Assembly: GCA_001766825.1 (NCBI GenBank)
Contig: LYOR01000001.1
Coordinates: 30,945 to 94,944, forward strand
Length of the DNA stretch: 64,000 bases
Direction: 5' to 3'
Source: Candidatus Syntropharchaeum butanivorans
GTDB lineage: Archaea > Halobacteriota > Syntropharchaeia > Syntropharchaeales > Syntropharchaeaceae
Shown here: piece by piece, positions 4,419-58,452 of the stretch
Layout: each line of letters opens with the position of its first letter
Position numbering within the stretch: the stretch's first letter is position 1
Made by a program: the position numbers and the translations under genes
The notes under the pieces: model-generated
The model's input: the letters and a program-made list of their open reading frames with translations, nothing else
What the model was told of the DNA's origin: nothing
The model's database searches: none

Positions 4419-4584
4419 TGGGGCTGGTGCGATTCGAACACACGACCGACGGGTCTCTCCGATCATCAGTGCTCCAACGGATCATCATAACGAAAGATCG
4501 CGTCCGATCTTTCGATTCAGCAGACCCGTTGTTCATCATATTACCGCTGGAGCCCGTCGCCCTTCCTGACTAGGCCACAGCCCC
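4419..4584 (-). tRNA. tRNA-Trp (anticodon CCA) with a ~93-nt intron carrying a box C/D sRNA
   Basis: Reverse complement: GGGGCTGTGGCCTAGTCAGGAAGGGCGACGGGCTCCAG[intron]..CCCGTCGGTCGTGTGTTCGAATCGCACCAGCCCCA. Acceptor GGGGCTG/CAGCCCC; anticodon stem ACGGG/CCCGT with loop CUCCAG; T-loop TTCGAAT. Intron contains ATGATGA (C), CTGA (D-prime), TGATGA (C-prime), CTGA (D). Confidence 0.8.
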
Positions 4585-39234: not shown

Positions 39235-39248
39235 CTTTAAAAATAAGG

Positions 39249-39266
39249 AAGGGGGTATACCCCCTT
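39249..39266. terminator. perfect 18-nt palindrome between convergent genes (bidirectional terminator candidate)
   Basis: aagggggtataccccctt is 9+9 self-complementary. It lies between the htpX stop (39234) and the stop of the minus-strand gene (39265). Confidence 0.35.
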
Positions 39267-40830
39267 AAAGCACACGCCTGCACATCCAGTCGATGAACCG
39301 ATCAAGCGGGTTCATGTTATGATGCAGGAATATGAACGGCCTCCTCCACCGGTGCTTGTACCCCGGAACCCTTGCAAGGAGGTGGTTTATCGGGTTAAGC
39401 ACAAGCGGCAGACACCTGTTCCACCATGTTCCACCGATTATATCCCATATCCAGTCACTCGGGTCAATCTCCCTGTACTCCTCCCTGCCCTCGATGATGT
39501 TATCAAACTCATCTCTAACAGGCCTGACAATGATCGGACGCTTGATCTTCGCACGCTCGTTTCTTGTGATCTCTCTCCACGGCCCCCTGCCACGGTTAAT
39601 GTGAGAGAACCTGAAGAGGATGTTAAGCAATTTATATGACTCCCCTCTGCATTCTTTGTAGAGTATCTCAGATAAGAGATACGGGTCAACGAGCCTCCCA
39701 AGCCCCTCACCAGGCCGGTTTCCATAGAGCCTTGCGGTTCTGATGTGCCGCTGCTTTCTGATGAGTGTATCTGGATAGAGGTCGTACCTGGTGGGATCAT
39801 CCTTGATCGTTGCAAATGCCTGTGATGTGACCGTGGGATCCTTTCCTGCGATGATCTGTGAGAGATCCTCAACCCCTTTCTTCTTTCTCTCCTCCTCAAG
39901 GACGTACTTTCTCCTCTTCTTGAGCTCAGCCCTCCATGCCCGCTGCTCAGGGCTTTTGTACTCCTCAATCTCACGCTTTATCTGCTCAAGCCATTTCTTC
40001 TTCCACTCTTTAAGCTCCTGCTTGACCTTTGCAATCCGTGCCTTTCGCTCTGCCTTCATCTGCTTTATCTCCTGCTTCTTGAGCCAGATCTCAGGGTATA
40101 TCTCCTTGGGCCAGCGGATATCAAATAACCGCCTGTACCTCCACTGATCTGCCTTGATCTTCTTGATATCAGCCTTTGCCTGCTGGATCTTTGTCCAGAG
40201 GATATAAATCTGCTCATCATAGCATGGCGGTACGTTGTGAAGGCATCGATCGATCGAGGCACACCCTGACAGCTGATGGTAACCCCGTAGACGGATCTTA
40301 TGGGTCCACAGGGTGTGGCCCGCAATCCAGCAGAAGATGTCTCCCCACGTCCAGAAGTTGTAGACGTGGTTGTTGATAAGCTCAAGGTCGTCGAACTGGC
40401 CCCTTGACCATGACTCAACCTCCATGCGATCGTTCCAGTTGTAAAGCGGTATCGCCTTGACGTAGTCCTGCCCTCTTATCGCAGGGAAGAAGGCTTTCCC
40501 ATCGAGCCATACAAACTCGGCGGTCTGCTGTCTGTATTTACGTGCGTGTATCCTGAGAAACTCCCACTTGAGCTCTGGCTTCTGGGTGTTGACCCAGCCT
40601 GAGGCTGTATCTGCCATCATGTTGATCTTGTTCGTCCTTGCAGGCTCTTCGTCAACCTCCTGACCCTCTGAGAGGGGGGAGCCGAACTTCGCAAACTTCT
40701 TCGGGAAGCGCTCTTTGAGCTCCTGAATAAAAGTCTCATCATCGTATTTTCCCTCGATGATGAGCTTCATGTACTTATCAGCCAGCTCCTTGTCCCTCTT
40801 TCTCCCAAAAATTCTCCCCATATCATCCAC
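39265..40830 (-). CDS. large Trp-rich hypothetical protein with central Lys/Glu-rich coiled coil
   Basis: 521 aa, ~20 tryptophans. Central KKIKADQWRYRR...KVKQELKEWKKKWLEQIKREIEEYK heptad-like stretch. No motif I can name. Last gene of a 3-gene minus-strand operon. Confidence 0.5.
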   Translation of the reverse strand: MDDMGRIFGRKRDKELADKYMKLIIEGKYDDETFIQELKERFPKKFAKFGSPLSEGQEVDEEPARTNKINMMADTASGWVNTQKPELKWEFLRIHARKYRQQTAEFVWLDGKAFFPAIRGQDYVKAIPLYNWNDRMEVESWSRGQFDDLELINNHVYNFWTWGDIFCWIAGHTLWTHKIRLRGYHQLSGCASIDRCLHNVPPCYDEQIYILWTKIQQAKADIKKIKADQWRYRRLFDIRWPKEIYPEIWLKKQEIKQMKAERKARIAKVKQELKEWKKKWLEQIKREIEEYKSPEQRAWRAELKKRRKYVLEEERKKKGVEDLSQIIAGKDPTVTSQAFATIKDDPTRYDLYPDTLIRKQRHIRTARLYGNRPGEGLGRLVDPYLLSEILYKECRGESYKLLNILFRFSHINRGRGPWREITRNERAKIKRPIIVRPVRDEFDNIIEGREEYREIDPSDWIWDIIGGTWWNRCLPLVLNPINHLLARVPGYKHRWRRPFIFLHHNMNPLDRFIDWMCRRVL

Positions 40831-40885
40831 CTTCTACCCTTTTAATGATTATAATTGCCCTCAAAAATATAAGGGTGTGGGACGA

Positions 40886-41125
40886 TCACTCCTCCACCTG
40901 GATGAGATACTGGTTTGCACAGACCGGACACTCTGGATCAGGGATCCATTCACCCTCCTTGTAGAACGTCGAGCAGTTCGGGCACTCGTAGGCGTTGTTT
41001 CCCTTCGGCATGAGCCTTATCCTGTGCCCGCACCTGCAAACCGGACAGACCGGAACAATCTTTAACTCAGACTCATCACCCTTCCAGTCACACGCGTTAC
41101 AGTAGTATTTCGTCATATCGATCAC
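40886..41125 (-). CDS. small multi-CxxC zinc-ribbon protein
   Basis: 79 aa: CNACDW, CPVCRCGH, CPNCS, CPVCAN, i.e. four CxxC pairs forming two zinc ribbons. Start abuts the stop of the upstream gene. Confidence 0.5.
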   Translation of the reverse strand: MIDMTKYYCNACDWKGDESELKIVPVCPVCRCGHRIRLMPKGNNAYECPNCSTFYKEGEWIPDPECPVCANQYLIQVEE

Positions 41126-41974
41126 CTACTCCTCCTCTTTCTTACCAACTGCACACATGTTAGCGCATGCCACACACTTCGGGAACCATCCAAGTGCTTC
41201 ATCCCATTCAAGAAGCTCATCGAACTTGACGTACTTGCTCCTGTACTCATCAATCTTCTCCATCGCATCTTCAGCATTTGTCCAGTCATACGGGGGCTCA
41301 TCGAGTCCTGTCGCCTTTACTCCACCCATTATGCCCCAGAGACACCGGTTCCTATTGAAGTTGTACGGTGGATAGTTATCCTCACTGATCGCGGATGTCG
41401 GGCATGCCTCAAGCCCGGACTTATCATCTGTTGCGACCTTGTTGACGAGCTTCGGGCCGTCCGGCTCTAAGGGTGCGTTGGTGACGATACTTGCAAGCAG
41501 TATCCTCGGACCAAACTCAGGTGTGAGGAAGAGATTCTCTATACCCTCCTCTCCAAGGCCCGCCTGGGTTGCTATCGCCTTGTGGCATGGCTGATGCAGC
41601 TGGGCTCCACCCACCTGTTGCTTCCGATCAAACGGATAATTCACCTCGATCAGCTTCGCATCGTAGCCTTTCTCCTTGAGGAACCCTACGATCCTCTTCC
41701 CCATCAGGTTCACTTCCCGTTCCAGTGTGAGGTATGTTGGCCCAAAACCTGTCATGAATATATACGGATCTTCTTCCTCGTCAAGCTCCAGAACGCCTTC
41801 CGGGAAGGCTTTTGCGATCGATATAACAGATTTTGCATCACTGACGAAATCCGATGGAGCGAAGTCTTTCTGCTGGGGTGGATACGTCACAGACTCGGCG
41901 CTTGCCACGCCTATCTTATCCAACCCTATCGAAAGCCCATAATTGATCAGCTCTTGCTTCAGATCATCTGCCAA
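41126..41974 (-). CDS. QueG-like (epoxyqueuosine-reductase / reductive-dehalogenase superfamily) protein with degenerate Fe-S motifs
   Basis: 282 aa. MADDLKQELINYGLSIGLDKIGVASAE, AKSVISIAKAFP and TQAGLGEEGIENLFLTPEFGPRILLASIVTNAPLEPDGP parallel B. subtilis QueG ([73 protein letters not shown]). The two CxxCxxCxxxCP ferredoxin motifs are not intact. Confidence 0.55.
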   Translation of the reverse strand: MADDLKQELINYGLSIGLDKIGVASAESVTYPPQQKDFAPSDFVSDAKSVISIAKAFPEGVLELDEEEDPYIFMTGFGPTYLTLEREVNLMGKRIVGFLKEKGYDAKLIEVNYPFDRKQQVGGAQLHQPCHKAIATQAGLGEEGIENLFLTPEFGPRILLASIVTNAPLEPDGPKLVNKVATDDKSGLEACPTSAISEDNYPPYNFNRNRCLWGIMGGVKATGLDEPPYDWTNAEDAMEKIDEYRSKYVKFDELLEWDEALGWFPKCVACANMCAVGKKEEE

Positions 41975-42112
41975 TTAGATACCTCCTTCCTAACCTTTAG
42001 TGTATACCGCTAAACAGCATATAATACTTTCCATCTTGGCACACACCCAAGGTGGCACGTGGCACATCAAACTTCTCGCACATAGTATATATACATATTC
42101 TTTTATCATAGT

Positions 42113-43602: not shown

Positions 43603-44844
43603 ATGGGCAGATACACGAGGTACGTAAGTTTATGGCTCCTCTGCACCACGCTTATACTTGTATCTATCAACCCTGCAGGTGGCGCCACGACCACTGAGCC
43701 CACCGTGATGGTCACAAACTACACGATTGATCCTGCTATTTTCATCCCAGGTGATAGAGGGACACTGACTGTCACAATCACAAACCGGGAAGCCTCATCA
43801 TCCCAGACGTTGACCACGACAAGCACAACCTCCACCACGACAACATCCACGACCTCAACCTCAGAGATCAAGACGAGGATCGAGGATGTCCGGCTCTATA
43901 CCTATAGCAGAGGTATCGGGTCGGTCAGAGAGGACATGAAGCGGGTTGTCTATGATAAGCCCGGGGCACTTGCACCTGGTGAGAGCATCACGCTGACCTT
44001 CCCGCTTGAGGTGGATGTTGAGGATGGGAGGTACCTGCTGGAGGTGAGGATCGCGATCGAGGACGGGATCAACGTCCGCTACCCCATCCTGATCACGGTC
44101 GATAGCTCAGCGGTTGAGCCTATCCTGATCGATATTCCCGATGAGATCTCGCTCAAGGGATCACGGGTGATCCAGCTTGCGGTTGCAAATACAAGGGCAA
44201 ACCGTGTCAAGGGTGTCAGGATCACACCACACGCTGAGAACTTTGAGTTTACACCTGAGAGCATCTTTATCGGGGAGATGAAATCAAACGAAAAGAGGAG
44301 GGTTAACTTCACACTCACACCGCTGAGACCAGGGTCATCTACGATCACGTTCAACGTCGAGTACAGGAACGGGGATAACCTCCATACCGTCTCACTCACC
44401 CGGGAGGTTGACGTGGTTGATCGCGACGATCTCAGGGTCATACTCGTCTCATGCCCTGGGGTGATACCAAGGGGTGGGAGCGGGAAGATAGAGCTTGATG
44501 TTGCAAACGGCAGATCGAACGATCTATCAAGCGTGCGCGTTATCCCGATACACGACGAGGCGTTCAGGATTTACCCGAGTGAGGTCTTCATCGGCGATAT
44601 GGAGCAGGACGATATATTCACCGCGGAGTTTGAGATCCATCCAACCACAGCCGCATCAGGTCTTGAGAATATATCATTCAAGGCGGTCTTCAGGGATATG
44701 GGTAACGATAAGCTATATGAGACAAATCCTCTTGTTGCCAGGATCAGAATCGAGGAGAATGGTGAGGATACACCTGGCTTTAGCATCATCTCCATTCTGG
44801 TTGCGCTTTTCATTGCAGGATTCATTATATTCCGGAAGAGGTGA
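43603..44844 (+). CDS. cell-surface protein with Thr-rich linker, CARDB-like Ig domains and PGF-CTERM sorting signal
   Basis: 413 aa. Signal peptide; TTTSTTSTTTTSTTSTS linker; repeated Ig-like blocks. C-terminus is TPGFSIISILVALFIAGFIIFRKR, i.e. the PGF tripeptide, a TM helix and basic residues (an archaeosortase substrate). Confidence 0.7.
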   Translation: MGRYTRYVSLWLLCTTLILVSINPAGGATTTEPTVMVTNYTIDPAIFIPGDRGTLTVTITNREASSSQTLTTTSTTSTTTTSTTSTSEIKTRIEDVRLYTYSRGIGSVREDMKRVVYDKPGALAPGESITLTFPLEVDVEDGRYLLEVRIAIEDGINVRYPILITVDSSAVEPILIDIPDEISLKGSRVIQLAVANTRANRVKGVRITPHAENFEFTPESIFIGEMKSNEKRRVNFTLTPLRPGSSTITFNVEYRNGDNLHTVSLTREVDVVDRDDLRVILVSCPGVIPRGGSGKIELDVANGRSNDLSSVRVIPIHDEAFRIYPSEVFIGDMEQDDIFTAEFEIHPTTAASGLENISFKAVFRDMGNDKLYETNPLVARIRIEENGEDTPGFSIISILVALFIAGFIIFRKR

Positions 44845-47049: not shown

Positions 47050-47205
47050 ATGGAAGGCTTAAAAAGATATCGGGTGCATGAGGTCAAGGGATCACTCAAG
47101 GTATCGCTGCCACGTGTGCTTGCTCAGGCTGTGGGTATCAGGAAGGGGGATGAGGTTGTGTGGGTCATCACGAAGGAAGGTTTGACCCTAAAGAAGATTT
47201 CTTGA
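47050..47205 (+). CDS. AbrB/MazE-type (SpoVT-AbrB swapped-hairpin) small DNA-binding protein
   Basis: 51 aa MEGLKRYRVHEVKGSLKVSLPRVLAQAVGIRKGDEVVWVITKEGLTLKKIS. This is the looped-hinge-helix pattern (KxSxxGxxxIPxxxR..GxxxGDxVxV). Below the ORF-track cutoff. Overlaps the antisense ORF 47124..47645. Confidence 0.45.
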   Translation: MEGLKRYRVHEVKGSLKVSLPRVLAQAVGIRKGDEVVWVITKEGLTLKKIS

Positions 47206-47645
47206 GTTAAATCCTGTCCTCTTCCATCCAATAAAGGACATACTCCACATAACCCCATACTCATCCGGTGCTTTCTTGGACAGGGTTGACCTGTCCACAC
47301 ATCAAAGAGGACAAAGGGGTTACCTGCCTTTGCCTTCTCCCACTCCTTCTTTATCTCTGGATCCTGCTTTGCTACCTCAAGGATCTTCTTAGCCTTCTTC
47401 ACAGTCTTATCTGAGATGAGTAAGCCCTGGTCTCTGGCTTTTTTGACTGCTAACTCAATGGATCTTCCTTTGTCTTCGGTGGGGGGTTCTTGACCCACCA
47501 CCGAACTTTTGAAGAGAGGTTTACCATTTTTATCTTTACCTGCTAATTGAGTAGCCTCTTGCCTCCTCCTTGCTCTCTCCTCCTCAATCTCTGCAAGCTT
47601 AAGGACAACTTCGGCTTTCTGTGCTGTGGTGAGGTGTCTTCTCAT
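47124..47645 (-). CDS. basic DNA-binding-like protein (ParB/KorB-type HTH resemblance), hypothetical
   Basis: 173 aa. N-terminal LTTAQKAEVVLKLAEIEEERARRRQ..KTVKKAKKILEVAK. The C-terminal third has low complexity and overlaps the AbrB-like ORF, so the 3' end may be mis-called. Confidence 0.35.
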   Translation of the reverse strand: MRRHLTTAQKAEVVLKLAEIEEERARRRQEATQLAGKDKNGKPLFKSSVVGQEPPTEDKGRSIELAVKKARDQGLLISDKTVKKAKKILEVAKQDPEIKKEWEKAKAGNPFVLFDVWTGQPCPRKHRMSMGLCGVCPLLDGRGQDLTQEIFFRVKPSFVMTHTTSSPFLIPTA

Positions 47646-47943
47646 AATGCCTCAAAAATGGCATATTTTTCACACCTCAGGTATCATAATACCCCCTCCC
47701 CTTCGAGATGCTCGAAAAACCCCTATTTTGAGGCTGTGGGTGGAGCAAAAAAAGTTGTCAAGGAGGTAACCGAGAGGCAAGCTTATCATTGCTCCACCCA
47801 CGATGGCACACAGCTCCCTTATTCCGGGCGGTTGCCCCGCAGCACAGGCTGCCACACCAGTGGTATTCAACCGCTGTTCATGGCGCTTGTTCTTACGCGG
47901 CATGGATGCCAACCCTCACGCCCACCAATGGATTAAGTGTGAT

Positions 47944-48288
47944 TCACACTGATTCGCCGCCGCCACCGAGGCCCCTGATGCTATAGATGATGATGCCTGC
48001 CATCAATGCAATCACCACGATGAGCATCATAGCCCACCCAGTGTTCATGACAGAAACGACCTTCTGTGAGGCTGTGTAAAACTCGCTGCTCTGGTCAATT
48101 GAAGCGATGTCATACACCTGATCGGCGACATAAACAGAGATCGCGCCGATGATCACGATGGTGAAGAGAACCATGCCAATCGTTGATACACTATCAACCT
48201 GCGCGCAGTGATCCTGCATGAACCTTCTTGCCTCAGCCTTTGCCGCTTCCATGATAAGCCTGCACCTGTCAACTACATGACCAAGCAT
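47944..48288 (-). CDS. two-helix membrane protein, hypothetical (element-encoded)
   Basis: 114 aa, two long hydrophobic helices, GGGGESV tail. Confidence 0.35.
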   Translation of the reverse strand: MLGHVVDRCRLIMEAAKAEARRFMQDHCAQVDSVSTIGMVLFTIVIIGAISVYVADQVYDIASIDQSSEFYTASQKVVSVMNTGWAMMLIVVIALMAGIIIYSIRGLGGGGESV

Positions 48289-48373
48289 ATCTGTTTCACC
48301 TCCATTAACACGATTAAATATTATCCATTACTATTTAAACCTACTCCTCTCTCGAATCAACTTCACACACAAT

Positions 48374-50083
48374 TTATCTACGATTTTTTGTTCTTTTTCT
48401 TCTTCCCGACTTCACACCGAGCATCTCCAATGGTGTGGCAACCGGGGCCACTTCCCCGAACCCGAATGCCCCGAGGTATGTGGATATATCCTTCTTTTTC
48501 TGCTTCCTGGGCTTCCGCTTTTTCGTTGGTGGCCTCCCCGGTGGTTTTTGACGTGGGGTGAACGTGACTGGCTCAATCCTCATATCCGGAAGATACAAAA
48601 CACGCGGGCGTGATGTCACCGCCTGCCTGACCTGCCTGAAAACATCAGCAAGCGGCTTGCTTTGCGCTTTGGTTTTGCTTGATGTCTGGGTTTTTGTTTC
48701 TACTGTGGGGGTAGATACAACCTCGATGATGGATTGAGTTTTTCCCTCCCCCTGTGGGGTTTCCTGTCCTGTAGTTTCCTGCCCTGTAGTTTTTCTTGTG
48801 AATGATGGTACAGGTATTGTTGGTGTCTTGCCTGATGCGCGTGCTTTGAAGCGGGGTGTGCCTGCAGCGCCAAGCATACCCATAAATGTTTCAATACCGC
48901 CACGAGCCGGTATGCGTGGCTTGGGCTTTGACTCGATGACCATCTTTTTAGCCCTGGGTCGTTTTATATCTTCAACAACAGACTTTGCAGCCTTATTCAC
49001 ATCTTGCCCAACTCTCTCAAAAATATCCCTGAGTCTGGCTTCTCTGATCATCGATTCAAGCCCACGATCAAGCTCAAGTGTCTTGACCCTCCTTGTGGCT
49101 GTTCGTGTTTCTGTTCGTGTCTCTGTTCGTGATTTAAATGCAGTGGCCGGCTTCCGTGTCCTTCTGTATGCAGATTTACCAAACCTATTCATCCACCTCT
49201 CCTGTGGGGTCTCCCGCCCTGTGGTCTTTTTCGGGCGTTCGTGTACAGATTTACCAAGCTTATCTGCCCATTTCTTAAACTCAGAAGGCTTTGGCTCAAA
49301 CCCAAACAGCTTTTTCAAATCCGGTGTGAGCTCAACAAAGTAATCCCCGGGTATTGCCTTACCACCCCATCCAATCTCAGGACGCCTCACCCCGCCTATC
49401 TTCTCTCTGAACCGTGGGAGATAGGGTTTCTCAGTAAACACACTATATCGGGGCTTTGCACCAAAGTATATGCCCTGGCGTGGTTTATGTCCGACTCTAA
49501 GCTTTCTGTATCCATATCTCACAGCATGAATCTGGGGTCTCTCGAACCTGGCTTCCTCATAAAATGGCTTGACCAGCTCAAAACCCCACGCTGGCTTCGT
49601 CTTTGGTGTGAAAGGCTGTACAGTACCACCCTTACCCTTTGGTGTGTCACTTATCCCTATTAGGGAGCCTTTTCTTGCACCAGTACCACGTGGCTCAAAT
49701 TGTTTGAAGGTTTCTTTTCCAAGGAAATACCCCTTCACATCTGCGAGTTGTGACATGTATTTCTCATAAGCGGCGATATTCCCAAGTGATACTTCCTTCT
49801 TCGTGGTTTCTCCAATCCTGTATATGTCACCGGAGACCTTCGTGGTTTTAGTTGACACCTTAACACTTTTTACCACAGGTTTTGTGCCAAACACAAGGGC
49901 TTTGTAATCCACTTTAACCGGTTGCCCTTCCTCCATGATTCTCGAAAACTCGGTTTTTCCAACCAGCGGCTTGCTTTTCGATCCCCACCTGATACCCAGA
50001 CCTTCATATTCAGGTGTTGTGATTCTGACCGGCTTTGGTGCATGCTCAACAGCCTTTCCCCCTACCTTACCAAAAAACCACAT
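48374..50083 (-). CDS. very basic repeat-containing protein, hypothetical (virion/nucleoprotein candidate)
   Basis: 569 aa, Lys/Arg/Pro/Gly-rich. Internal tandem repeats RTETRTETRTATRR and TTGQETTGQETPQ, matching DNA repeats near 49100 and 48770. C-terminal KKRKPRKQKKK. Confidence 0.5.
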   Translation of the reverse strand: MWFFGKVGGKAVEHAPKPVRITTPEYEGLGIRWGSKSKPLVGKTEFSRIMEEGQPVKVDYKALVFGTKPVVKSVKVSTKTTKVSGDIYRIGETTKKEVSLGNIAAYEKYMSQLADVKGYFLGKETFKQFEPRGTGARKGSLIGISDTPKGKGGTVQPFTPKTKPAWGFELVKPFYEEARFERPQIHAVRYGYRKLRVGHKPRQGIYFGAKPRYSVFTEKPYLPRFREKIGGVRRPEIGWGGKAIPGDYFVELTPDLKKLFGFEPKPSEFKKWADKLGKSVHERPKKTTGRETPQERWMNRFGKSAYRRTRKPATAFKSRTETRTETRTATRRVKTLELDRGLESMIREARLRDIFERVGQDVNKAAKSVVEDIKRPRAKKMVIESKPKPRIPARGGIETFMGMLGAAGTPRFKARASGKTPTIPVPSFTRKTTGQETTGQETPQGEGKTQSIIEVVSTPTVETKTQTSSKTKAQSKPLADVFRQVRQAVTSRPRVLYLPDMRIEPVTFTPRQKPPGRPPTKKRKPRKQKKKDISTYLGAFGFGEVAPVATPLEMLGVKSGRRKRTKNRR

Positions 50084-51615
50084 TGCTGCAAGATCACCGG
50101 CAAGCTCAAAAACTCACCCGGCTCTCCCCTGAGCTTCTCTGGAGCTGTTTTAACCCACTCTTTTGTGCTTGTCACAACCTCCTTGCCTGCTGCAACCGGC
50201 CCCTCTGTTACCGCAGTCTCTGCAAGTGCCCCCAAACCAACCACATCGCGCGTAAAAGCAATCGGGAACATCACCATTGATTCCGGTCCTGCACTGTGCC
50301 TGTATTTCTTCTCCCCCCATGCCTCAAGCTTGAGTACGGCCTTATGGAACGGTCGTTTTTCCTTCTCTATCTCCTTTTCAAGGGCTTCTTTTCGTAGCTT
50401 ACGCTCATGTAATTCCTTCTTCTTTGCCTCCTGCTTAACAATATACTCACGTGAATACCCGATGAGTTCGCGGTACCCCGGTGGTAGTACCTTTATCTCC
50501 TTCGGTATTTGTTCAGGGGAGGCTGTCACACGTGCTGGTGGTTGATAATATTCCATTACAGTGGGTGATGTCTCCTTCTGCTTCCCTGCCTTTTTATACC
50601 ACTCAGGTGGAGTGGTTGTCACACGTGCTGGTGTTGGGGATGGAAGGGGTTTGCCGGAACCTATTACAATATCCTCAAAACTCAGATACCCTTTCTTTTT
50701 AGGCTGCTGCTGCTTTTGTGGCTGTGGTTTTGGCTTTGGCTTTACCGGCTCTGTCCAAGTTGCTATAAGCTCATTTTGCTTGCCAAGTGAGAAGGAAAAA
50801 GGTACATCAGCGGGTATGAGCTTCTTCACATTCTTCGCAGCCTGCTCATAAGCCTGCCGGATGGATTTTGCCACAGCTTCAAACTCCTTGAGCCTACCAC
50901 CGGCCCATGCAGGAGCCTTGATGCCATATTTTTTACCACCAAACTCAACTTCTGTCCTGACCTGCTTTGCAACACGTGATGGATAATCACCACGCTCAAG
51001 CTTCCATTGAAGTATGCCAAGATACTCAGATTTGGTAGGAGGGTTTGGAAGTGGTACAAAGGTTGGCTTGCCATGCTCCCACAGCACAGTACCCCATTTA
51101 TAGCCAAGTGCTCGTGCAACATCAGGTGGGTTTGCAGCAGCACCCATCATCTGTACCTTGCCATCCTCAATCTTAACCCACATGCCGCCTGAGTGGGTTT
51201 GGGATGGCTTGATGGGGGGTCTTCGTTGTGTGGGTGTTCCTGACTCCGGGATATAGAGAATACCATACTTTGTTTGAACCTGTTTGTACCACGTGCCGCT
51301 GAGCTTTATCCTGCCCATTGGCTTTCCTCTGCCGGCCCTGTACTCCTTCATCATCTTCTCTTTTCGCTCACGCTCCCGCCGGATTCTCTTCCTCCTCCTT
51401 CTCTCACGTTCTGCCTTCTCACGTGCAATTCGCTGCTCAATCTCCCTCCTCTTCCTCTCAAGCTCTGCCTGCTGCTCTGCACGATATCGCTTGAGGGCTT
51501 CCTCACGCATGAGTGAGGGGTAGATGGGTATATCACGCTGGATATCTTGCTTCAGCTTCTGGTATTCGGATTCGCTCAGTTTCATGATATCTCCCTCAAC
51601 ATTCAATCTCCACAT
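50062..51615 (-). CDS. basic coiled-coil protein, hypothetical (element-encoded)
   Basis: 517 aa. N-terminal charged helix (KRYRAEQQAELERKRREIEQRIAREKAERERRRRKRIRRERERKEK), PKPKPQPQKQQQPKKK linker, second helical region. Overlaps the previous gene by 22 nt. Confidence 0.5.
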   Translation of the reverse strand: MWRLNVEGDIMKLSESEYQKLKQDIQRDIPIYPSLMREEALKRYRAEQQAELERKRREIEQRIAREKAERERRRRKRIRRERERKEKMMKEYRAGRGKPMGRIKLSGTWYKQVQTKYGILYIPESGTPTQRRPPIKPSQTHSGGMWVKIEDGKVQMMGAAANPPDVARALGYKWGTVLWEHGKPTFVPLPNPPTKSEYLGILQWKLERGDYPSRVAKQVRTEVEFGGKKYGIKAPAWAGGRLKEFEAVAKSIRQAYEQAAKNVKKLIPADVPFSFSLGKQNELIATWTEPVKPKPKPQPQKQQQPKKKGYLSFEDIVIGSGKPLPSPTPARVTTTPPEWYKKAGKQKETSPTVMEYYQPPARVTASPEQIPKEIKVLPPGYRELIGYSREYIVKQEAKKKELHERKLRKEALEKEIEKEKRPFHKAVLKLEAWGEKKYRHSAGPESMVMFPIAFTRDVVGLGALAETAVTEGPVAAGKEVVTSTKEWVKTAPEKLRGEPGEFLSLPVILQQCGFLVR

Positions 51616-51868
51616 TAAAATATGCAGATCTCTTATAAAACTGTTTGGTGTGTGATTTACAATTCAAAAAATGAAAAAAGAGGGTGATAATCCCCCTCAA
51701 GTGTATATTTCCACACCACAATCGTCTAATTTCTCCCTTACAAAGGGAGAACCCCGCAGCCGCTCCATAATCGTCTCAAAGATCGAAAACGCTGCATTCA
51801 AGTCATTGTCCTCGATCTCGATTGCAAGCACATCCTCGCCGATTGAAAGCTGAATCCTGGCCATTCAA

Positions 51869-52084
51869 TCATCCTCCTGGTAGATTGCAATCAGGATGAT
51901 GTATTTGGGTTTTTTTCCGGAGCATCTCTCGAAGCTCGGCGTAGGCTTCACGTCTCTGCTGCCCATTATTATGCTTCCCCGGGGGCGCATAAGTCTGAAG
52001 TTGCTCCCATGGACTGCAATTCTCGCAGAATTCGGTGCCGGCCGTCGGACACCCGCAACAGAAGCACCATGTGTCTTTCATCAT
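51869..52084 (-). CDS. small zinc-finger protein (element-encoded)
   Basis: 71 aa with CFCCGC, CENC and a C-terminal HHPDC. Confidence 0.35.
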   Translation of the reverse strand: MMKDTWCFCCGCPTAGTEFCENCSPWEQLQTYAPPGKHNNGQQRREAYAELREMLRKKTQIHHPDCNLPGG

Positions 52085-52548
52085 CTTCTATCACCTCCAT
52101 TAAAGCTAAAATCATCTTTCTCCTGGGGTGTCTTAATGTTAAAATGATGCTTTAACATTAAGACCCTCTCTCCTTCTTCTGTGAGACAGACCTTTTTGAT
52201 CTGTGGTCTCAAAATCTCGATATGTGGGTAAACACACCCTTTTTTTGTTTTAAATTCCAATTTTACAAGCCCCTTTTCTTCCAAATTTCTGAGCGACCGG
52301 CTAAAACTCACAGCAAAGCTTGGGATGTGACCCCTCCCATAGGCAAGTGCAGCAGCCGTTTTCAACCCTCTGTAATTGAGTTCCCCACCACTATCATTGA
52401 GAATCTTTAGAATTACAAGCTGTAACCTACTGAGTCTTCTATCTGGCTTGGGTGGGTTTTCCTCCTCGTTTCTCATCTTTTCCATTAAATCGAGGAAGAG
52501 GAGGTCAAGAGGAGTTTCCCCCCGATCTTTTTCTCTCCGTGGCCACAT
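52081..52548 (-). CDS. winged-helix DNA-binding protein (element-encoded)
   Basis: 155 aa. LSRLQLVILKILNDSGGELNYRGLKTAAALAYGRGHIPSFAVSFSRSLRNLEEKGLVKLEF has a MarR/PadR-like wHTH pattern. 4-nt overlap with the upstream gene. Confidence 0.45.
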   Translation of the reverse strand: MWPRREKDRGETPLDLLFLDLMEKMRNEEENPPKPDRRLSRLQLVILKILNDSGGELNYRGLKTAAALAYGRGHIPSFAVSFSRSLRNLEEKGLVKLEFKTKKGCVYPHIEILRPQIKKVCLTEEGERVLMLKHHFNIKTPQEKDDFSFNGGDRR

Positions 52549-52552
52549 CCAT

Positions 52553-52834
52553 CTACCCCCTTACTTCCGACGCATCATACGTTTTAATGCATCGAAGGGA
52601 CCAGTCAAACGCTTTAACTTGGCCTATACCATGACTGGCAAGCACATACCCTTTAGGCGGGGATCCTTCGAGAACCCAGAGTTCCACCCTGTAGTTATCC
52701 TCTTCGTATGAGTCCGGTGGACTCGCTCTTAACCACGCTCGTGATGTTTCATCCTTCCCTTCATATCGTCTGACTACGACCCGCTTTGCCTTTTCAATCA
52801 GTTTTTTCATTGTTTCCTCATACATTAACATCAC
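52553..52834 (-). CDS. hypothetical small protein (element-encoded)
   Basis: 93-aa ORF immediately downstream of the replication gene; no motif I can name. Confidence 0.3.
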   Translation of the reverse strand: MMLMYEETMKKLIEKAKRVVVRRYEGKDETSRAWLRASPPDSYEEDNYRVELWVLEGSPPKGYVLASHGIGQVKAFDWSLRCIKTYDASEVRG

Positions 52835-55775
52835 CTCCGTTCAAATCCGTGAAAATCATACCGAGAGCGCTACGGAGGGTTAGATCATTTGGATCTCTCT
52901 TGAGAAGGCCTAACAGCTGCAACTGGCTTGTCGCAGCCTCAATGAAGCTGTCCCGCTTTTTGTTGTTCAGGAGCTGCTTGTTGTGTTGTATGAAGTCTTT
53001 GAGCTTTCGTATTATTGTGTTGAGGTCATCGGTGCCGGTGATTGGATCAGCAATACCCCGACCCTTAAGGGTATGCATTTCTGCGTCCGGTTCGTCCACT
53101 TCGCCCGGGCCGGACGCACCGGGCGCAAAGGACGCAAGATTGACATTACTAAGGGGGTGGGGGTGAGAGTGATTATTGTTACTCTTTTTATAGATGTTGA
53201 TGAATCGCTCTCCTGACTTCCCGCGCTCAATCATCACTCCAATCGCTGCAAGGTTGGTCTTAAGCCGTTCAAGCTCCTCTGAAAGCCCTTTGGGCGAGCC
53301 TTTCCACTCCCTCGATCGTCTGTCCACCCCAAGCTCTTTTGCCTTAAGATTGAAAATCTGTAACAGCTCGCTTGCCGTCCCCTGCCACTGCCGTTCACCA
53401 TCCAGGAAGTTGTGTCTGATCCCCTCCTCATTAATGTAATATCTATCGTTAATCAACGCAAGCAATACACTCCCCATTATCGAGCTCTCAACGACCCGGA
53501 TATTGTCGTCACCCTTCGAGCTCAAATAATCCTCCAAGAATGTTCCTGCCTCATAACCAAGCGCTCTCAAACACGCTTCGCCCACCTCTGCGTAGTCAAA
53601 CATACGTACCTCACCCGGGATCCTGATTTTTTCGCTCTTGAGTACCCTCAGTGTCTTTGAAAGGAGATCGAGAAGCGCACCGAAGAGCTGTGGTTTTGTT
53701 GCTTCAAACACCTGTTGTAGTCCTCGCTCGCTCCTGTTATCCTCACGCCTCGTCAGTTTGAAAAATAAGCTTCGATCCACCACATCTGGCCGGTATAGTG
53801 GAATTAATATGCCGTTCAACACGATAGCCCGCTTGTAATTGTAGATCACTTCATCCTCGTCTGTATAAAGTGCCCGCTTTGTCTCTCCTGCCCCCGTGAC
53901 AGCCCTTGCGAGGACGTCTGACTGCCAGTCCCTGATCATACCCTCATTATCGAAAACTGCACAGTAATGGTGGAATAACGCAATGATCATGTCATTATCC
54001 CTCGTTGGCATCCTGAGTGTTTCAGTTTTCGATGGATCAATCAAATCTTTAATCCATTTGGAGAATGTGGTTTTTCTGGAACCGTGCTGACCGTAAAACA
54101 CTATAATCGGTCTTGGAATCTCCGGGAAGAAGTATGAGATGACCGCTGTGAGGAGAAGCCGCCTATCTCGCTCGTTTTCAATCGTGAAAAAGTCCCAAAG
54201 CCGTTCAATCCTACCACCGTGCTCCGGTCTCGCCTGTGGTCGTTGATGCTGTTCTCTTCTGAAAAGAATGGGTGGATCTGTGGTGATTCTCCACCCGCTC
54301 TCATCAATCTCAATAACCTCACCGGCCTCGTTTGCAAGGTCGTAATAGATCTTGCCGTTAAACTCACCGATCCTGTTCCACAGGTAGAATTGGCTGCCGT
54401 CAAACCTCGCAATGCCCGACAGGGTTGTTGTTGCCGTCGTCAACGCTTCATTACTCAATGTTTTTTGTTCGGCTTCCCACCACACCCGAGCGAGCCACTC
54501 TTTAAATTCACGTGATCTGATCCTCAACGCCCGTGTTCCCTTTTCGTTTTCGATGATCGCATGTGGTTCGTCGTATTGATCGCAACCGATTCCTTTGAGA
54601 AGACTCAGGGCGAGAGAAACGAGTCTGTCGTTTTGAGACTTTGGCTTTGAACCCCCTTCCTTGGTCGATTCTTCGCTTTTTGTGTTTTTCCTTTCCTTAC
54701 ACAGCTCACAGAGATGACTCACAAGAGAAGCGCAATCCCGCTGTATCGTTGCACACCTGTGAGGCCGTATCCCCCTCACCCTGGTCCGATCAATGTGTGA
54801 TTGTGTGACCGCCGAATCATAATCTGCCTGCAGTTTGAAGACCTCGTGAATCTCCTGATCTGTATATCCTGCTGCAACGAGCTCAGCAACCAGCGCAAGC
54901 CTGAAATGATGCCCATCTCCGCCTGTGAGCTGCCAGCGCTGCTCTATCGCCTGTTTAAAACACGGGCGTAGCTCCCCTTTCACCTCTGGTGGATTTGCGG
55001 GCTGTACATCTCTCTCAACCTCAAGATTCAGGATATAATCTCTCAATCGCTCATCTTCACTTCTCACAAGTGGATCAACAGCATAAGAAAGCCTGTGCGG
55101 TCTCTCTGGTGTATCCTCCCCCTTTATCGATCTGGTGCCGATCACCTTGATGATGCGCGGTAAATCACCGATGTTATCGATCTCTGCGCGATCGTTCTCA
55201 AACTTCTCTTTGATTAGCTTCTGGAATGCCTGGAGCTTTGCCTGTACCGCTTCCCTGTTCTCATCGTCAAGCTCGATGGGTGGAATTCCTGACCATAGCT
55301 GGAAGCCGTTGCCGCTCATACACTTGATGGGTCTATGGAACCCCTGAGACTCAAACCACTCGATGATCTGATCTGCAACCTCCTCAGCCTTCTCAAGCTC
55401 CTCATCCGTTGCTGGCTGCTTGCTGTCTGGTCGTCTCGCATCAACATCGATGATCGATGCATTCACAGCTGCTATATCCTCAGCCCTCCCCCTTCGCTGC
55501 TTTCGTGGATTGATACCGACATAGACGTTATAATCACCATTAAGCTGCCTGCATCGATCTACAAAGTCATCCTCGTCCTTCACAAAGTAAATTACTGGCT
55601 TCTTCTCCCCGTTCGGATCGATTCCTCGGATCTCGGTGAGTGATTGGTGTGCTAAGAATCGGTAGACCTGTCTGACAGTCAGAGCATCAAACTCTAAGCC
55701 TCCGTGTGCTGAATCGAAAGGCTTAAGTATGCTGGTATCCGGAGATGTATTTGTAAAGCTCTCATCTTTGTCCAT
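52818..55775 (-). CDS. replication protein: archaeo-eukaryotic primase-polymerase (PrimPol) domain fused to D5/SF3-type P-loop helicase
   Basis: The ORF runs to 55865; the likely start is MDKDES. N-terminal PrimPol block YVGINPR..ASIIDVDAR (acidic DxD). Middle Zn/primase-C region (CATIQRDCASLVSHLCELC). C-terminal Walker A VFYGQHGSRKTTFSKW and Walker B-like CAVFDNEG. Confidence 0.7.
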   Translation of the reverse strand: MDKDESFTNTSPDTSILKPFDSAHGGLEFDALTVRQVYRFLAHQSLTEIRGIDPNGEKKPVIYFVKDEDDFVDRCRQLNGDYNVYVGINPRKQRRGRAEDIAAVNASIIDVDARRPDSKQPATDEELEKAEEVADQIIEWFESQGFHRPIKCMSGNGFQLWSGIPPIELDDENREAVQAKLQAFQKLIKEKFENDRAEIDNIGDLPRIIKVIGTRSIKGEDTPERPHRLSYAVDPLVRSEDERLRDYILNLEVERDVQPANPPEVKGELRPCFKQAIEQRWQLTGGDGHHFRLALVAELVAAGYTDQEIHEVFKLQADYDSAVTQSHIDRTRVRGIRPHRCATIQRDCASLVSHLCELCKERKNTKSEESTKEGGSKPKSQNDRLVSLALSLLKGIGCDQYDEPHAIIENEKGTRALRIRSREFKEWLARVWWEAEQKTLSNEALTTATTTLSGIARFDGSQFYLWNRIGEFNGKIYYDLANEAGEVIEIDESGWRITTDPPILFRREQHQRPQARPEHGGRIERLWDFFTIENERDRRLLLTAVISYFFPEIPRPIIVFYGQHGSRKTTFSKWIKDLIDPSKTETLRMPTRDNDMIIALFHHYCAVFDNEGMIRDWQSDVLARAVTGAGETKRALYTDEDEVIYNYKRAIVLNGILIPLYRPDVVDRSLFFKLTRREDNRSERGLQQVFEATKPQLFGALLDLLSKTLRVLKSEKIRIPGEVRMFDYAEVGEACLRALGYEAGTFLEDYLSSKGDDNIRVVESSIMGSVLLALINDRYYINEEGIRHNFLDGERQWQGTASELLQIFNLKAKELGVDRRSREWKGSPKGLSEELERLKTNLAAIGVMIERGKSGERFINIYKKSNNNHSHPHPLSNVNLASFAPGASGPGEVDEPDAEMHTLKGRGIADPITGTDDLNTIIRKLKDFIQHNKQLLNNKKRDSFIEAATSQLQLLGLLKRDPNDLTLRSALGMIFTDLNGGDVNV

Positions 55776-55783
55776 ATTTTTTT

Positions 55784-56035
55784 TCACCTCCCCACAATCC
55801 TCACACCGTTGTGAGGCACGATTTGGACCAACCCTGCATTCTCCATCGCGGTGAGGAGATCCCACACCTCGCCCCTTGTGAGCCTGAAATAAGGTGAAAG
55901 AATCCTGTAAACCTCACCGAAGCGTATTATGCCTGAACGTGTCCTGTTTTTTGCTTTTTCGTCAAGTAGCTTAGTTGCTTTTACCAGGAACTTCGGTACC
56001 TGCTTCTTTTCCTCGATGAGAACTACTGGATCCAT
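55784..56035 (-). CDS. small winged-helix DNA-binding protein (element-encoded)
   Basis: Start set at MDPVVL, with GGAGG 8 nt upstream on the coding strand. IIRFGEVYRILSPYFRLTRGEVWDLLTAMENAGLVQI is a wHTH-like segment. Confidence 0.45.
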   Translation of the reverse strand: MDPVVLIEEKKQVPKFLVKATKLLDEKAKNRTRSGIIRFGEVYRILSPYFRLTRGEVWDLLTAMENAGLVQIVPHNGVRIVGR

Positions 56036-56088
56036 GTAGGGTTCCTCCTTCTTTTTTTCCAACCTCTTCCAACCATTTCCCAAGAAAT

Positions 56089-56256
56089 TCAAAGACTCGC
56101 TGCATCCTTTTCACCTTCTGTCATCTCGAGGATCTTTCTCATCCCAGCTTCAATGAAAGCGCTCCGGGATATTACTCCGTTCCGGGTCTGTCGTGCGCGG
56201 TCAATCTTCTCAAGCACCTCGGGACTCATCGCGATGTTTACTATTTTGCGGGTCAT
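56089..56256 (-). CDS. ribbon-helix-helix (CopG/Arc/MetJ-type) regulator (element-encoded)
   Basis: 55 aa MTRKIVNIAMSPEVLEKIDRARQTRNGVISRSAFIEAGMRKILEMTEGEKDAASL. Beta-strand then two helices, RHH pattern. Below the ORF-track cutoff. It is the first gene of the minus-strand replication operon. Confidence 0.5.
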   Translation of the reverse strand: MTRKIVNIAMSPEVLEKIDRARQTRNGVISRSAFIEAGMRKILEMTEGEKDAASL

Positions 56257-56330
56257 GTTTCAAACCTCCAATTTCTACAACAAAAATGGGGAAACTTATA
56301 TATATGTGTTAATAACAAATAGTTTGTTAG

Positions 56331-58318: not shown

Positions 58319-58379
58319 ATCAATCCGTCCTCTGCCTCCATCGGATATATATGGCAGAGGCTTATGATGTGGTTAAAAC

Positions 58380-58392
58380 AAGCCGCTGGTGG
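58380..58392. repeat. attR-type direct repeat (within the tRNA-Thr 3' end)
   Basis: aagccgctggtgg is identical to 46940..46952. Confidence 0.6.
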
Positions 58393-58452
58393 GATTCGAA
58401 CCCACGACCTGCTGATTACGAGTCAGCCGCTCTTCCACTAAGCCACAGCGGC
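58381..58452 (-). tRNA. tRNA-Thr (anticodon CGU)
   Basis: Reverse complement: GCCGCTGTGGCTTAGTGGAAGAGCGGCTGACTCGTAATCAGCAGGTCGTGGGTTCGAATCCCACCAGCGGCT. 72 nt. Acceptor GCCGCTG/CAGCGGC; anticodon stem GCTGA/TCAGC with loop CTCGTAA; T-arm GTGGG-TTCGAAT-CCCAC. Confidence 0.85.

Follow-up and report, generated by a model that had tools for sequence, protein, structure and literature searches.

The window analysed here, a 64,000-nucleotide stretch of the genome of the butane-oxidising archaeon Ca. Syntrophoarchaeum butanivorans, carries on its minus strand three consecutive open reading frames, A, B and C, and the first two of these form a conserved two-gene module of Syntrophoarchaeum, Alkanophaga and related unclassified archaeal MAGs. 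Profile and structure comparison place gene A in the class-III cobalamin superfamily (QueG/RdhA/CblC). The reading that we favour on balance, with modest confidence, is of a conserved A-B module linked to the activation of alkyl-CoM reductase, next to which gene C forms a separate unit. The pair is probably a corrinoid/[4Fe-4S] reductase module, its functional link to alkyl-CoM reductase activation being drawn from the gene neighbourhood in two lineages.

All three are real genes, under purifying selection with dN/dS values of 0.05–0.13, and their neighbours in the window (Table 1) are housekeeping genes, with a divergent ADP-ribosylglycohydrolase gene upstream of A and a convergent HtpX gene downstream of C. 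At NCBI, gene A is OFV66793.1, labelled “4Fe-4S ferredoxin” or “epoxyqueuosine reductase”, and gene C is SBU_000084, labelled “hypothetical”. A literature search for the locus tags SBU_000084-86 returned nothing relevant, and no expression or proteome data for the three genes were found in the literature, including the Alkanophaga supplementary tables. The TTG start of gene A is conserved and has AAGGAGG 7 nt upstream. The preliminary description of this DNA had the trio tightly packed, which is true of A and B, where the stop codon of A (41126–41128) is followed without a gap by the GTG of B at 41125, with the ATG of B at 41116, but not of B and C, which are parted by a spacer of 55–64 nt that holds a conserved TATA-like box.

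Table 1. Features of the A-B-C locus, in positions of the window
Feature	Position	Strand	Description
Gene A	41126..41974	(-)	282 aa, TTG start; QueG/RdhA class-III cobalamin superfamily member
Gene B	40886..41116 (ATG, 76 aa) or from GTG 41125 (79 aa)	(-)	Double zinc ribbon
Gene C	39265..40821 (518 aa) or from GTG 40830 (521 aa)	(-)	Basic, Trp-rich
B-C spacer	40831..40885	(-)	TATA-like box, conserved
Divergent intergenic region 5' of gene A	41975..42112	(-)	Two A/T-rich boxes, conserved
Palindrome at 3' end of gene C	39240..39266	(-)	AAGGGGGTATACCCCCTT then CCTTATTTTT

The homology of gene A to QueG that had been proposed at the outset was borne out. Gene A scored 41.4 bits (E 8.7e-11) against the QueG model TIGR00276, without reaching its curated equivalog cutoff of 200 bits, and 34.7 bits (E 1.7e-8, residues 128–214) against the reductive dehalogenase model TIGR02486, without reaching its cutoff of 160 bits. 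A profile search of the PDB recovered QueG 5d08 (E 3.7e-20) and PceA (E 1.1e-12), and hhalign aligned gene A with QueG at a probability of 99.7 % (E 8.6e-26). Foldseek with an AF2 model of gene A, in which the N-terminal domain is confident and the ferredoxin half has pLDDT values below 50, placed QueG first (3e-11), then PceA, NpRdhA and MMACHC; the best 46 matches were all QueG or RdhA, with MMACHC next. The match to the QueG N-terminus, described as nearly residue-for-residue, is of that quality for about the first 25 residues, but overall identity is 31 % over ~236 aligned residues. Gene A is not QueG, since it reaches 41 bits against a 200-bit cutoff and lacks the HEAT domain, the D-Y-H motif and Asp134. 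It ends 8 residues past its last Cys, whereas QueG sequences run ~130 residues longer at the C-terminus and carry PF13646 and PF03130 domains there. To our knowledge the host archaeon does not make queuosine, and a QueG-superfamily protein in such an organism agrees with the earlier suggestion of a repurposed enzyme. Literature searches combining QueG or epoxyqueuosine reductase with Syntrophoarchaeum, MCR or ACR gave nothing relevant, and another short QueG-like protein (P0026) was set aside as uninformative, its context being unrelated.

The Fe-S ligands of gene A were compared with those of B. subtilis QueG, whose Cys198, 214, 240 and 243 ligate the cobalamin-proximal cluster (PMC5175355). 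These residues align with C191, C211, C267 and C270 of gene A, which, together with C274, are invariant throughout the family. The claim that both ferredoxin motifs had decayed thus applies to the first three Cys of motif 1, the distal-cluster triad, which are replaced by A181, D184 and G187, but not to the proximal-cluster ligands, which are intact. In addition, the Pro following the last Cys is Ala, the Pfam Fer4 models no longer give a significant match to gene A, and five of the eight cluster-ligating Cys are present, where relatives in other genera have all eight. Loss of the distal triad is limited to Syntrophoarchaeum; Alkanophaga and four other lineages retain CxxCxxCxxxCP, relatives at 47–54 % identity have intact double motifs, and P0010/P0011 show an intermediate Cys-to-Asp state in the triad. 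Despite the loss of the distal Cys, dN/dS of gene A is 0.08. In the corrin site, the class-III Tyr above the corrin is retained, on alignment only, as Y81 (Tyr105 of QueG), a position that family members fill with Tyr or His, and the basic residue below it as K132 (Arg141 of QueG). Asp104-Tyr105-His106 of QueG, in contrast, reads T80-Y81-L82 in gene A, so that of these three only the Tyr is kept, and the catalytic Asp134 is aligned by hhalign with Q120. Because the proximal ligands are invariant and Y81 and K132 are retained, a redox and cobalamin role for gene A appears more likely than the non-redox role that had been deduced from a supposed loss of its clusters.

Gene B has the four CxxC pairs of the zinc-ribbon protein first described next to gene A (C6/9, C24/27, C45/48 and C63/66), all of them invariant. 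No significant match to it was found in the PDB or Pfam, the best being zinc finger 2 of IFT121 at 19 bits, under the cutoff. It lies directly 3' of gene A in 13/13 loci examined, which belong to alkane-oxidising Syntropharchaeia or to unclassified archaeal MAGs and metagenome contigs; as for co-occurrence of the whole trio, C is found at the A-B locus only in Syntrophoarchaeum. The gene A family is small: a search of 5.8 billion proteins yielded ~10 clusters (90 % identity) and a GTDB scan detected it in 7 archaeal species, both searches being limited by pattern and k-mer matching. The only named taxa in which it was seen are Syntrophoarchaeum and Alkanophaga, which are oxidisers of multi-carbon alkanes with Acr, and its other loci are in unclassified MAGs or on metagenome contigs.

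The neighbourhood of the pair in two other lineages points to its possible function. The MCR activation complex includes component A2, and Mmp5, Mmp6 and Mmp15 are encoded in the MCR activation operon (PMC12176620; bioRxiv 10.64898/2026.03.18.712670). In a lineage of tar-biofilm MAGs, PqqD-Mmp6-Mmp5-Mmp15-Mmp15 genes stand directly upstream of A-B-TRASH on the same strand, with divergent mcrBA alongside in 3/4 of these loci; the assignments to Mmp6 (TIGR03272, 138 bits against a cutoff of 126), Mmp5 (225 against 140) and the two Mmp15 (689 and 650 against 456) all exceed their cutoffs. In loci L019-L021, a gene for component A2 (TIGR03269, 570 bits against a cutoff of 517) ends 46 nt upstream of A. 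The proteins of the Mmp-linked and A2-linked lineages are just 61–63 % identical, and the two settings may descend from one shared ancestral arrangement. In other lineages A is preceded by gaps of 70 nt and 46 nt, which leave room for separate promoters. In this window, in Alkanophaga and in loci L009 and L022, the pair is not beside mcr, mmp or atwA, and when the proteins of the L004 cluster were searched against the window by tblastn, only A and B matched and no mcr or mmp genes were found. Shared synteny between loci L001 and L010 was considered and rejected, as a FabK-like gene alone is common to both and their other neighbours differ.

Since A-B directly follows MCR-activation genes in two separate lineages, its most likely role would be that of an accessory reductase in the activation or maturation of alkyl- or methyl-CoM reductase. 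Gene A would be a minimal class-III cobalamin enzyme without the HEAT domain or the catalytic Asp/His of QueG, predicted from homology alone to bind a base-off corrinoid, which the retained proximal [4Fe-4S] cluster would reduce, and a substrate other than tRNA would then be converted by Co(I)/Co(II) chemistry. As the distal relay cluster is lost in Syntrophoarchaeum, electrons would there pass from a partner straight to the proximal cluster. Gene B, as a two-site Zn ribbon, would be the obligate partner and may serve as an adaptor or docking subunit, and the ATP-dependent Mmp15 or A2 are plausible donors of low-potential electrons or energy. Gene C, whose product is basic, Trp-rich and largely helical, adjoins the pair in this genus and would lie outside the conserved module. 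A bolder version, which is conceivable but doubtful, makes A-B a hitherto unrecognised corrinoid-dependent player in the alkyl-CoM reductase biology of Syntropharchaeia, either as a Co(I) reductase working with A2/Mmp15 or as the missing enzyme that removes the alkyl group of alkyl-CoM by way of a Co-C intermediate. The former would place A-B in the ATP-driven activation, repair or maturation of ACR. On the bolder version, a rewired route of electron delivery would be marked in Syntrophoarchaeum by three changes, the distal cluster and the TRASH gene being lost and the Trp-rich protein C gained.

An alternative that we regard as unlikely is that A-B processes or reduces corrinoids, as a CblC/MMACHC-like dealkylase or a cob(II)alamin reductase that feeds Co(I)/Co(II) corrinoid to an adenosyltransferase or to the corrinoid methyltransferases, of which these archaea have many; the pair would then transform no substrate within the ACR system. 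MMACHC, which is among the structural matches of gene A, shares the base-off corrinoid-binding fold with the QueG class (PMC4646009), and genes for the CobA adenosyltransferase (TIGR00708, 172 bits against a cutoff of 168), a MetE-like methyltransferase, uroporphyrinogen-III methyltransferase and CfbE lie within 1.5–8 kb of A-B in L019-L021, as do MtaA-like genes ~4 kb from it in L022. These nearby genes, however, differ from A-B in strand or transcription unit, what directly precedes the pair is A2 or Mmp15 and not cob genes, and a housekeeping corrinoid reductase would be expected well beyond one archaeal class and in more than the few clusters and species in which this family is found.

It is less probable still that A-B attacks alkyl-S-CoM by means of Co(I), with formation of an alkyl-cobalt species, as the first step in turning alkyl-CoM into acyl-CoA. 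The restriction of the named family members to Acr-carrying alkane oxidisers would suit such a reaction, a Co-C intermediate has been proposed for QueG (PMC4646009), and the step from alkyl-CoM to acyl-CoA is explicitly stated to be unknown (PMC10322722). Against it, the A-B operon contains no methyltransferase, Aor or beta-oxidation genes. The family, a small one, was undetected by the pattern- and k-mer-limited searches in other groups that bear Acr (Ethanoperedens, Methanoliparia, Hadarchaeota and Bathyarchaeia), and the model of gene A, poor in its C-terminal half, offers no obvious hydrophobic substrate channel to assess.

Gene C requires separate treatment, as its relation to the pair bears on a further alternative. 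The protein was initially described as having 521 residues, about 20 tryptophans and a central charged coiled coil, and as belonging to no family, all of which the analysis upheld: there are 23 Trp (4.4 %), a pI of 9.6, a central charged helix at ~246–318 and a KADIKKIKAD motif, and no significant match was found among Pfam, NCBIfam, PHROG, PADLOC and PDB profiles, those to DUF5401 and YidC being non-significant. When 1.84 billion representative proteins were searched exhaustively by HMM, 16 hits resulted, mostly fragments, of which at least one looks spurious (a 1,299-aa CHU_C protein). A rerun of the profile in a k-mer-indexed search, whose candidate list is saturated by Lys-rich words, brought back the same 3 proteins and no more, and from a metagenome scan came nothing beyond the same species and a fragment of 2 kb. 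The family HMM found no paralogues in the window, and the absence of relatives in IMG/VR lends no support to a viral origin. The AF2 model, built on a 10-sequence alignment, has a mean pLDDT of 44. Gene C is a very rare, Syntropharchaeales-specific family, for which no relatives of known function were detected.

The intergenic sequences bear on whether C is expressed with the pair. In the B-C spacer, CCCTTATATTTTTG (40875–40862) and ATTATAATCATTAAAA (40855–40840) are kept across three Syntrophoarchaeum lineages in which synonymous sites are saturated, and GAAGGTGGA precedes the ATG of gene C; the boxes may be an archaeal TATA/BRE promoter from which C is transcribed, an oligo-T stop that ends the A-B transcript, or both at once. 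The conserved A/T-rich boxes AAAGTATTATATGC (42030–42017) and ATAAAAGAATATGTATATATAC (about 42106–42085) upstream of A are candidates for the promoters that serve A-B and the divergent ADP-ribosylglycohydrolase gene. The “perfect palindromic terminator” at the end of the trio is indeed a perfect palindrome of 18 nt, AAGGGGGTATACCCCCTT, with CCTTATTTTT after it; it overlaps the TAA stop of C and lies within the 30-nt gap between C and HtpX, but as a hairpin it is thermodynamically ordinary (z = -1.1; 32/200 shuffles as stable). In other Syntrophoarchaeum loci the downstream gene overlaps C, so there is no room for an equivalent.

According to the original proposal, gene A is a decayed QueG relic without Fe-S clusters and with a non-redox role, and A-B-C is one operon with a shared function, which now seems improbable. 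It accords with the loss of three of the four distal-cluster Cys and of the Pro, the lapse of the Fer4 match, the coincidence in one lineage of distal-cluster loss and the gain of C, and the invariant A-B-C order in at least seven Syntropharchaeales assemblies and in three species with differing downstream flanks. A relic is at odds with the invariant proximal ligands and C274, with the intact relatives and with the low dN/dS. A single operon, for its part, is at odds with the lack of C at the locus of the pair in all other lineages, with distant homologues of C that occur in unrelated contexts, unlinked to A-B, and with the conserved TATA-like box in the spacer, and for these reasons C is probably a separate unit with its own promoter. 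The single trio thus gives way to a conserved pair and a third gene confined to the genus, although, given the invariant order despite differing flanks, gene C may nonetheless be coupled in function to the pair.

A reading of gene A as a small reductive dehalogenase of the cytoplasm, or as some other xenobiotic reductase, is highly improbable. TIGR02486 does match residues 128–214, and gene A is matched to PceA and NpRdhA both by structure and by profile, but its TIGR02486 score falls far short of the cutoff, the protein has 282 aa against 450–700 aa for the dehalogenases of solved structure, QueG is closer by every measure, and an rdhB or rdhT-type neighbour was seen at no locus.

We know of only two characterised chemistries among class-III cobalamin enzymes, epoxyqueuosine reduction and reductive dehalogenation, and the class would, if this reading is true, be widened by a third subfamily, minimal and archaeal, whose partner is an obligate Zn-ribbon protein. 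All named members of this subfamily are alkane-oxidising archaea, and the repeated proximity of A-B to A2 and Mmp5/6/15 makes it a concrete candidate in the questions of how divergent alkyl-CoM reductases are activated and matured and of how acyl-CoA arises from alkyl-CoM. The stepwise loss of the distal cluster, from Cys to Asp to absent, offers a natural experiment on electron entry into class-III enzymes, and with gene C the very rare protein families under constraint gain a further member.

Of the known systems, QueG (5D08/5D0A/5T8Y of B. subtilis; 5D6S of S. thermophilus) is the closest, with the same nitroreductase-like corrinoid domain followed by a ferredoxin domain, strong likeness over the first 25 residues and in the AGxG...TPEFG...TNxPxEPD core, and the same proximal-cluster Cys, Tyr above the corrin and basic residue below. 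Gene A differs in the missing C-terminal tRNA-binding HEAT domain, the change of D-Y-H to T-Y-L and of the catalytic Asp134 to Gln120, the distal cluster gone in Syntrophoarchaeum, a C211-C267 insert 27 residues longer, a host not expected to make queuosine and a Zn-ribbon partner that is always present. With RdhA, PceA and NpRdhA it has in common the class-III chain from two [4Fe-4S] clusters to a base-off corrinoid, the conserved Tyr and a profile-level match at residues 131–199, whereas it is much shorter (the matched PDB chains have 464–725 aa), scores far under the RdhA cutoff and has no RdhB or RdhT partner gene nearby. MMACHC/CblC shares the corrinoid-binding fold (structural match E about 7e-4), but has no ferredoxin domain and negligible sequence similarity (14 %). 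Gene C has only a generic charged, coiled-coil-like helix in common with anything described. A and B have no homology to the described components of the MCR activation complex (A2, McrC, Mmp3/7/17, with Mmp5/6/15 as operon partners), and we know of no A-B pair in methanogens; their likeness to the MCR activation system lies in the two lineages where A+B(+TRASH) comes immediately behind A2 or Mmp6-Mmp5-Mmp15-Mmp15 and shares their strand.

The locus followed here consists of a QueG-like gene (A), a zinc-ribbon gene (B) and a Trp-rich gene (C), which are real genes that are still uncharacterised. Gene A is 100 % identical to a Candidatus Syntrophoarchaeum butanivorans protein, and a cluster look-up placed it at OFV66793.1, labelled "4Fe-4S ferredoxin" or "epoxyqueuosine reductase", and gene C at SBU_000084, labelled "hypothetical protein". 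The TTG start of gene A, with AAGGAGG 7 nt upstream, is kept in two other Syntrophoarchaeum loci, and selection between Syntrophoarchaeum lineages is strongly purifying on all three genes (dN/dS 0.05-0.13, dS > 0.9); gene A is not a decaying pseudogene. The neighbours are ordinary housekeeping genes, with ThrRS, RFC, RadB, type-2 IPP isomerase, an HtrA-like protease and HtpX on one side and ADP-ribosylglycohydrolase and MoaB on the other. Also in the window is a 413-aa protein with a hydrophobic segment at its N-terminus, a linker rich in Thr and Ser and a transmembrane anchor at its C-terminus. It is probably a cell-surface protein; it has no Pfam match but a conserved counterpart in another Syntrophoarchaeum species.

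Coordinates of the features discussed, in the window and in the loci of relatives (L numbers)
Feature	Sequence	Coordinates	Strand	Remarks
Three consecutive ORFs	window	41974-39265	minus	A, B, C
Gene A	window		minus	282 aa; TTG start
Gene B	window	ATG at 41116	minus	76 aa; alternative GTG at 41125, immediately after the stop codon of A
Gene C	window	ATG at 40821 or GTG at 40830	minus	518 aa or 521 aa
413-aa protein	window	43603-44844	plus
413-aa protein homologue	L006	7829-9058		second Syntrophoarchaeum species
TRASH-domain gene	L004	9137-9283		PF08394
TRASH-domain gene	L005	9128-9274		PF08394
TRASH-domain gene	L019	2974-3117		PF08394
Divergent mcrB/mcrA	L004	997-4069		tar-biofilm Halobacteriota MAG
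Divergent mcrB/mcrA	L010	3020-6070		tar-biofilm Halobacteriota MAG
Divergent mcrB/mcrA	L011	2991-6063		tar-biofilm Halobacteriota MAG
Small membrane proteins beside distant C homologue	L017	1926-2413		predicted
Small membrane proteins beside distant C homologue	L018	8674-9051		predicted
Mobile-element-like region	window	47100-58452	minus
Tyrosine-integrase-like gene	window	57122-58318		phrog_216, E 1e-24
tRNA-Thr(CGT)	window	58381-58452
Intron-containing tRNA	window	4419-4584	minus	Rfam tRNA, 45.9 bits

The conserved unit is the pair of A and B. Across 5.8 billion proteins and a GTDB set with one genome for each species, family A turned up in only some ten clusters at 90 % identity and in seven archaeal species, the hosts being Syntrophoarchaeum, Ca. 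Alkanophaga liquidiphilum and volatiphilum, a "Syntropharchaeia archaeon" and unclassified Halobacteriota or Methanobacteriota MAGs. Directly 3' of A, a protein of 72-89 aa carrying four invariant CxxC pairs was present in 13 of the 13 loci examined; these B homologues are 52-86 % identical to B of the window, for which there was no significant Pfam or PDB match. Outside Syntrophoarchaeum and Alkanophaga the conserved third gene encodes a 47-48 aa TRASH-domain metal-binding protein (30.3 bits), and the window yielded no homologue of it.

Gene A is homologous to class-III cobalamin enzymes but is not QueG, and together with B it represents a new, narrowly distributed variant of these enzymes. 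It scored 41 bits with the QueG equivalog model (cutoff 200 bits) and 35 bits with the RDH model (cutoff 160), while the A-family profile found B. subtilis QueG (E 3.7e-20) and PceA (1.1e-12) in the PDB, and profile-profile comparison with hhalign aligned residues 2-274 to QueG at 99.7 % probability. The AlphaFold model is confident in the N-terminal domain and has pLDDT < 50 in the ferredoxin half; a structure search with it returned QueG first, then PceA, NpRdhA and MMACHC. The nearly residue-for-residue match to the QueG N-terminus reported in the preliminary description reflects about the first 25 residues, the pairwise identity to a QueG being 31 %.

In B. subtilis QueG, Cys198, 214, 240 and 243 ligate the cobalamin-proximal cluster and Cys188, 191, 194 and 247 the distal one (PMC5175355). 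Both clusters of QueG are surface-exposed (PMC4646009). Mapping by hhalign and family alignments places the proximal ligands of A at C191, C211, C267 and C270, all invariant in the family, as is C274, the equivalent of Cys247; the remaining distal triad is replaced by A181, D184 and G187. The two motifs, CxxCxxCxxxC(P) and C...CxxCxxxC(P), are both present in Alkanophaga, L009 (a further A+B locus), the tar-biofilm MAGs and L019. Two relatives of A, P0010 and P0011, are intermediate, with Asp in place of the second Cys; the window protein has Asp at that position too. In the aligned family, loss of the distal cluster is confined to Syntrophoarchaeum. Residues of the cobalamin site are kept in the alignment, with Y81 equivalent to the class-III Tyr (Tyr or His across the family) and K132 to Arg141 (Lys or Arg). 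The decay of both Fe-S motifs noted earlier is therefore true of the distal relay and not of the cofactor-proximal cluster, and the non-redox function proposed from lost clusters is unsupported, since the proximal ligands and the corrin-facing residues remain.

The neighbourhoods of the pair in other genomes make a link to alkyl-CoM reductase (ACR) activation credible. Four loci from tar-biofilm and related MAGs carry, on one strand, PqqD-like, Mmp6, Mmp5, Mmp15, Mmp15, A, B and the TRASH-domain gene, with all Mmp assignments above curated cutoffs, and in three of the four this cluster lies head-to-head with a divergent mcrB-mcrA pair, whose McrA scores 537 bits (cutoff 768). In the tar-biofilm Halobacteriota MAGs mcrB and mcrA stand back to back with 9-26 nt separating them, mcrG is neither between them nor next to them, and the activation genes facing them form a partial second set (PqqD-like, Mmp6, Mmp5 and two tandem Mmp15 copies). 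A second lineage (L019-L021), whose A is 61-63 % identical to that of the first, has MCR component A2 on the same strand 46 nt upstream of A (TIGR03269, 570 bits; cutoff 517), followed in order by A, B and TRASH. A2 is one of the subunits of the complex that activates MCR at the expense of ATP (PMC12176620). Mmp5, Mmp6 and Mmp15 belong to the same "MCR activation operon", and a possible role as transient ATPase partner has been considered for Mmp15 (bioRxiv 10.64898/2026.03.18.712670). That the pair has different MCR-activation neighbours in two lineages is unlikely to be chance, although both settings could still descend from one ancestral arrangement. The pair is isolated from such neighbours in the window, Alkanophaga, L009 and L022.

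Gene A has the fold, and every ligand needed, for one [4Fe-4S] cluster beside a corrinoid site; it is under constraint, and B accompanies it at every locus examined. It would bind a base-off corrinoid and receive electrons at the proximal cluster, where in Syntrophoarchaeum they would enter directly because the distal cluster is gone. B may dock A to a partner or substrate, and the module would help to activate or mature ACR/MCR, the ATP-coupled low-potential step plausibly coming from the ATPases A2 or Mmp15. The strongest rival is a CblC-like corrinoid-processing or cob(II)alamin-reducing role, to be set beside the MMACHC match and the CobA adenosyltransferase, MetE-like gene, uroporphyrinogen-III methyltransferase and CfbE near the second-lineage pair; the Mmp and A2 neighbours point to activation. 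A less likely rival is direct Co(I) chemistry on alkyl-CoM. A dehalogenase-like role for A is suggested by the PceA and NpRdhA matches and disfavoured by the RDH score.

Gene C (pI 9.6, 23 Trp, no hydrophobic segment) has a conserved core, KADIKKIKAD...W.YR...RWP..YPEIW, a central charged helix of varying length and a conserved C-terminal region (GLGR..P.LLSEI..KECRG; G.G.W+E; RP..PSD). As first reported, it could be placed in no family, with no match in domain libraries or the PDB; its AF2 model is unusable (pLDDT 44), and an exhaustive HMMER search of 1.84 billion representative proteins gave 16 matches, mostly fragments; the weakest, to a protein of 1,299 aa with a CHU_C domain, is probably spurious. 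Distant homologues of full length (24-35 % identity) occur in unrelated contexts with no A-B nearby: one adjoins FabK-like and acyl-CoA dehydrogenase genes, another small membrane-protein genes, and a third lies between a GTPase/OapB pair and U32 peptidase, DUF5402 and MtaA-like genes. Some of the small predicted membrane proteins flanking distant homologues (105, 50 and 125 aa) overlap the C homologue, and the family might, judging from such neighbours, act at the membrane. Gene C lies 3' of A-B only in Syntropharchaeales, where the order is invariant: it is kept in three species-level lineages, each with a downstream flank of its own, and in at least 7 assemblies the NCBI accessions of A and C are exactly 2 numbers apart. 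TRASH loss, distal-cluster loss and gain of C all coincide in Syntrophoarchaeum, which is suggestive but amounts to a single evolutionary event. The preliminary description of the locus was largely right and went wrong in taking all clusters as decayed and the trio as one conserved operon; a cluster-less A-B-C operon accommodates the gene order in Syntropharchaeales and is made unlikely by the invariant proximal ligands and the pairs without C.

The B-C spacer (55 nt) shows much stronger conservation than synonymous sites do and contains CCTTTATATTTTTG and ATTATAATCATTAA. This is compatible with a candidate archaeal TATA/BRE promoter driving C, with an oligo-T signal that ends the A-B transcript, or with the two together. 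The perfect palindromic terminator described at the end of the trio exists as an 18-nt palindrome plus T-run in the gap of 30 nt between the trio and the convergent HtpX gene. Its folding energy does not stand out from that of shuffled sequences (z = -1.1), and other Syntrophoarchaeum loci have no room for an equivalent. Transcription in archaea terminates chiefly at oligo-T tracts, so TTATTTTT matters more here.

Elsewhere in the window, and not including the A-B-C locus, a region with strongly negative AT skew looks like an integrated mobile element. Its tyrosine-integrase-like gene adjoins tRNA-Thr(CGT) and is preceded by ORFs of 173, 80, 114, 569, 517, 155 and 1015 aa, none with a Pfam match; K+R makes up 20-22 % of two very basic ones, and the 1015-aa protein has a weak match to phrog_9660. 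The intron-containing tRNA, for which ARAGORN gave no call, holds the C/D-box sRNA sR3 (RF01133, 59.6 bits) within its intron.

In QueG, D-Y-H plus Asp are strictly conserved, the Tyr being the sole active-site residue common to all class-III enzymes (PMC4646009), and the B. subtilis enzyme has catalytic Asp134 and His106, with Arg141 under the corrin (PMC5175355). Gene A is without the substrate-specific parts of QueG: in place of Asp104, His106 and Asp134 it has T80, L82 and Q120, and unlike QueG it has no HEAT domain.
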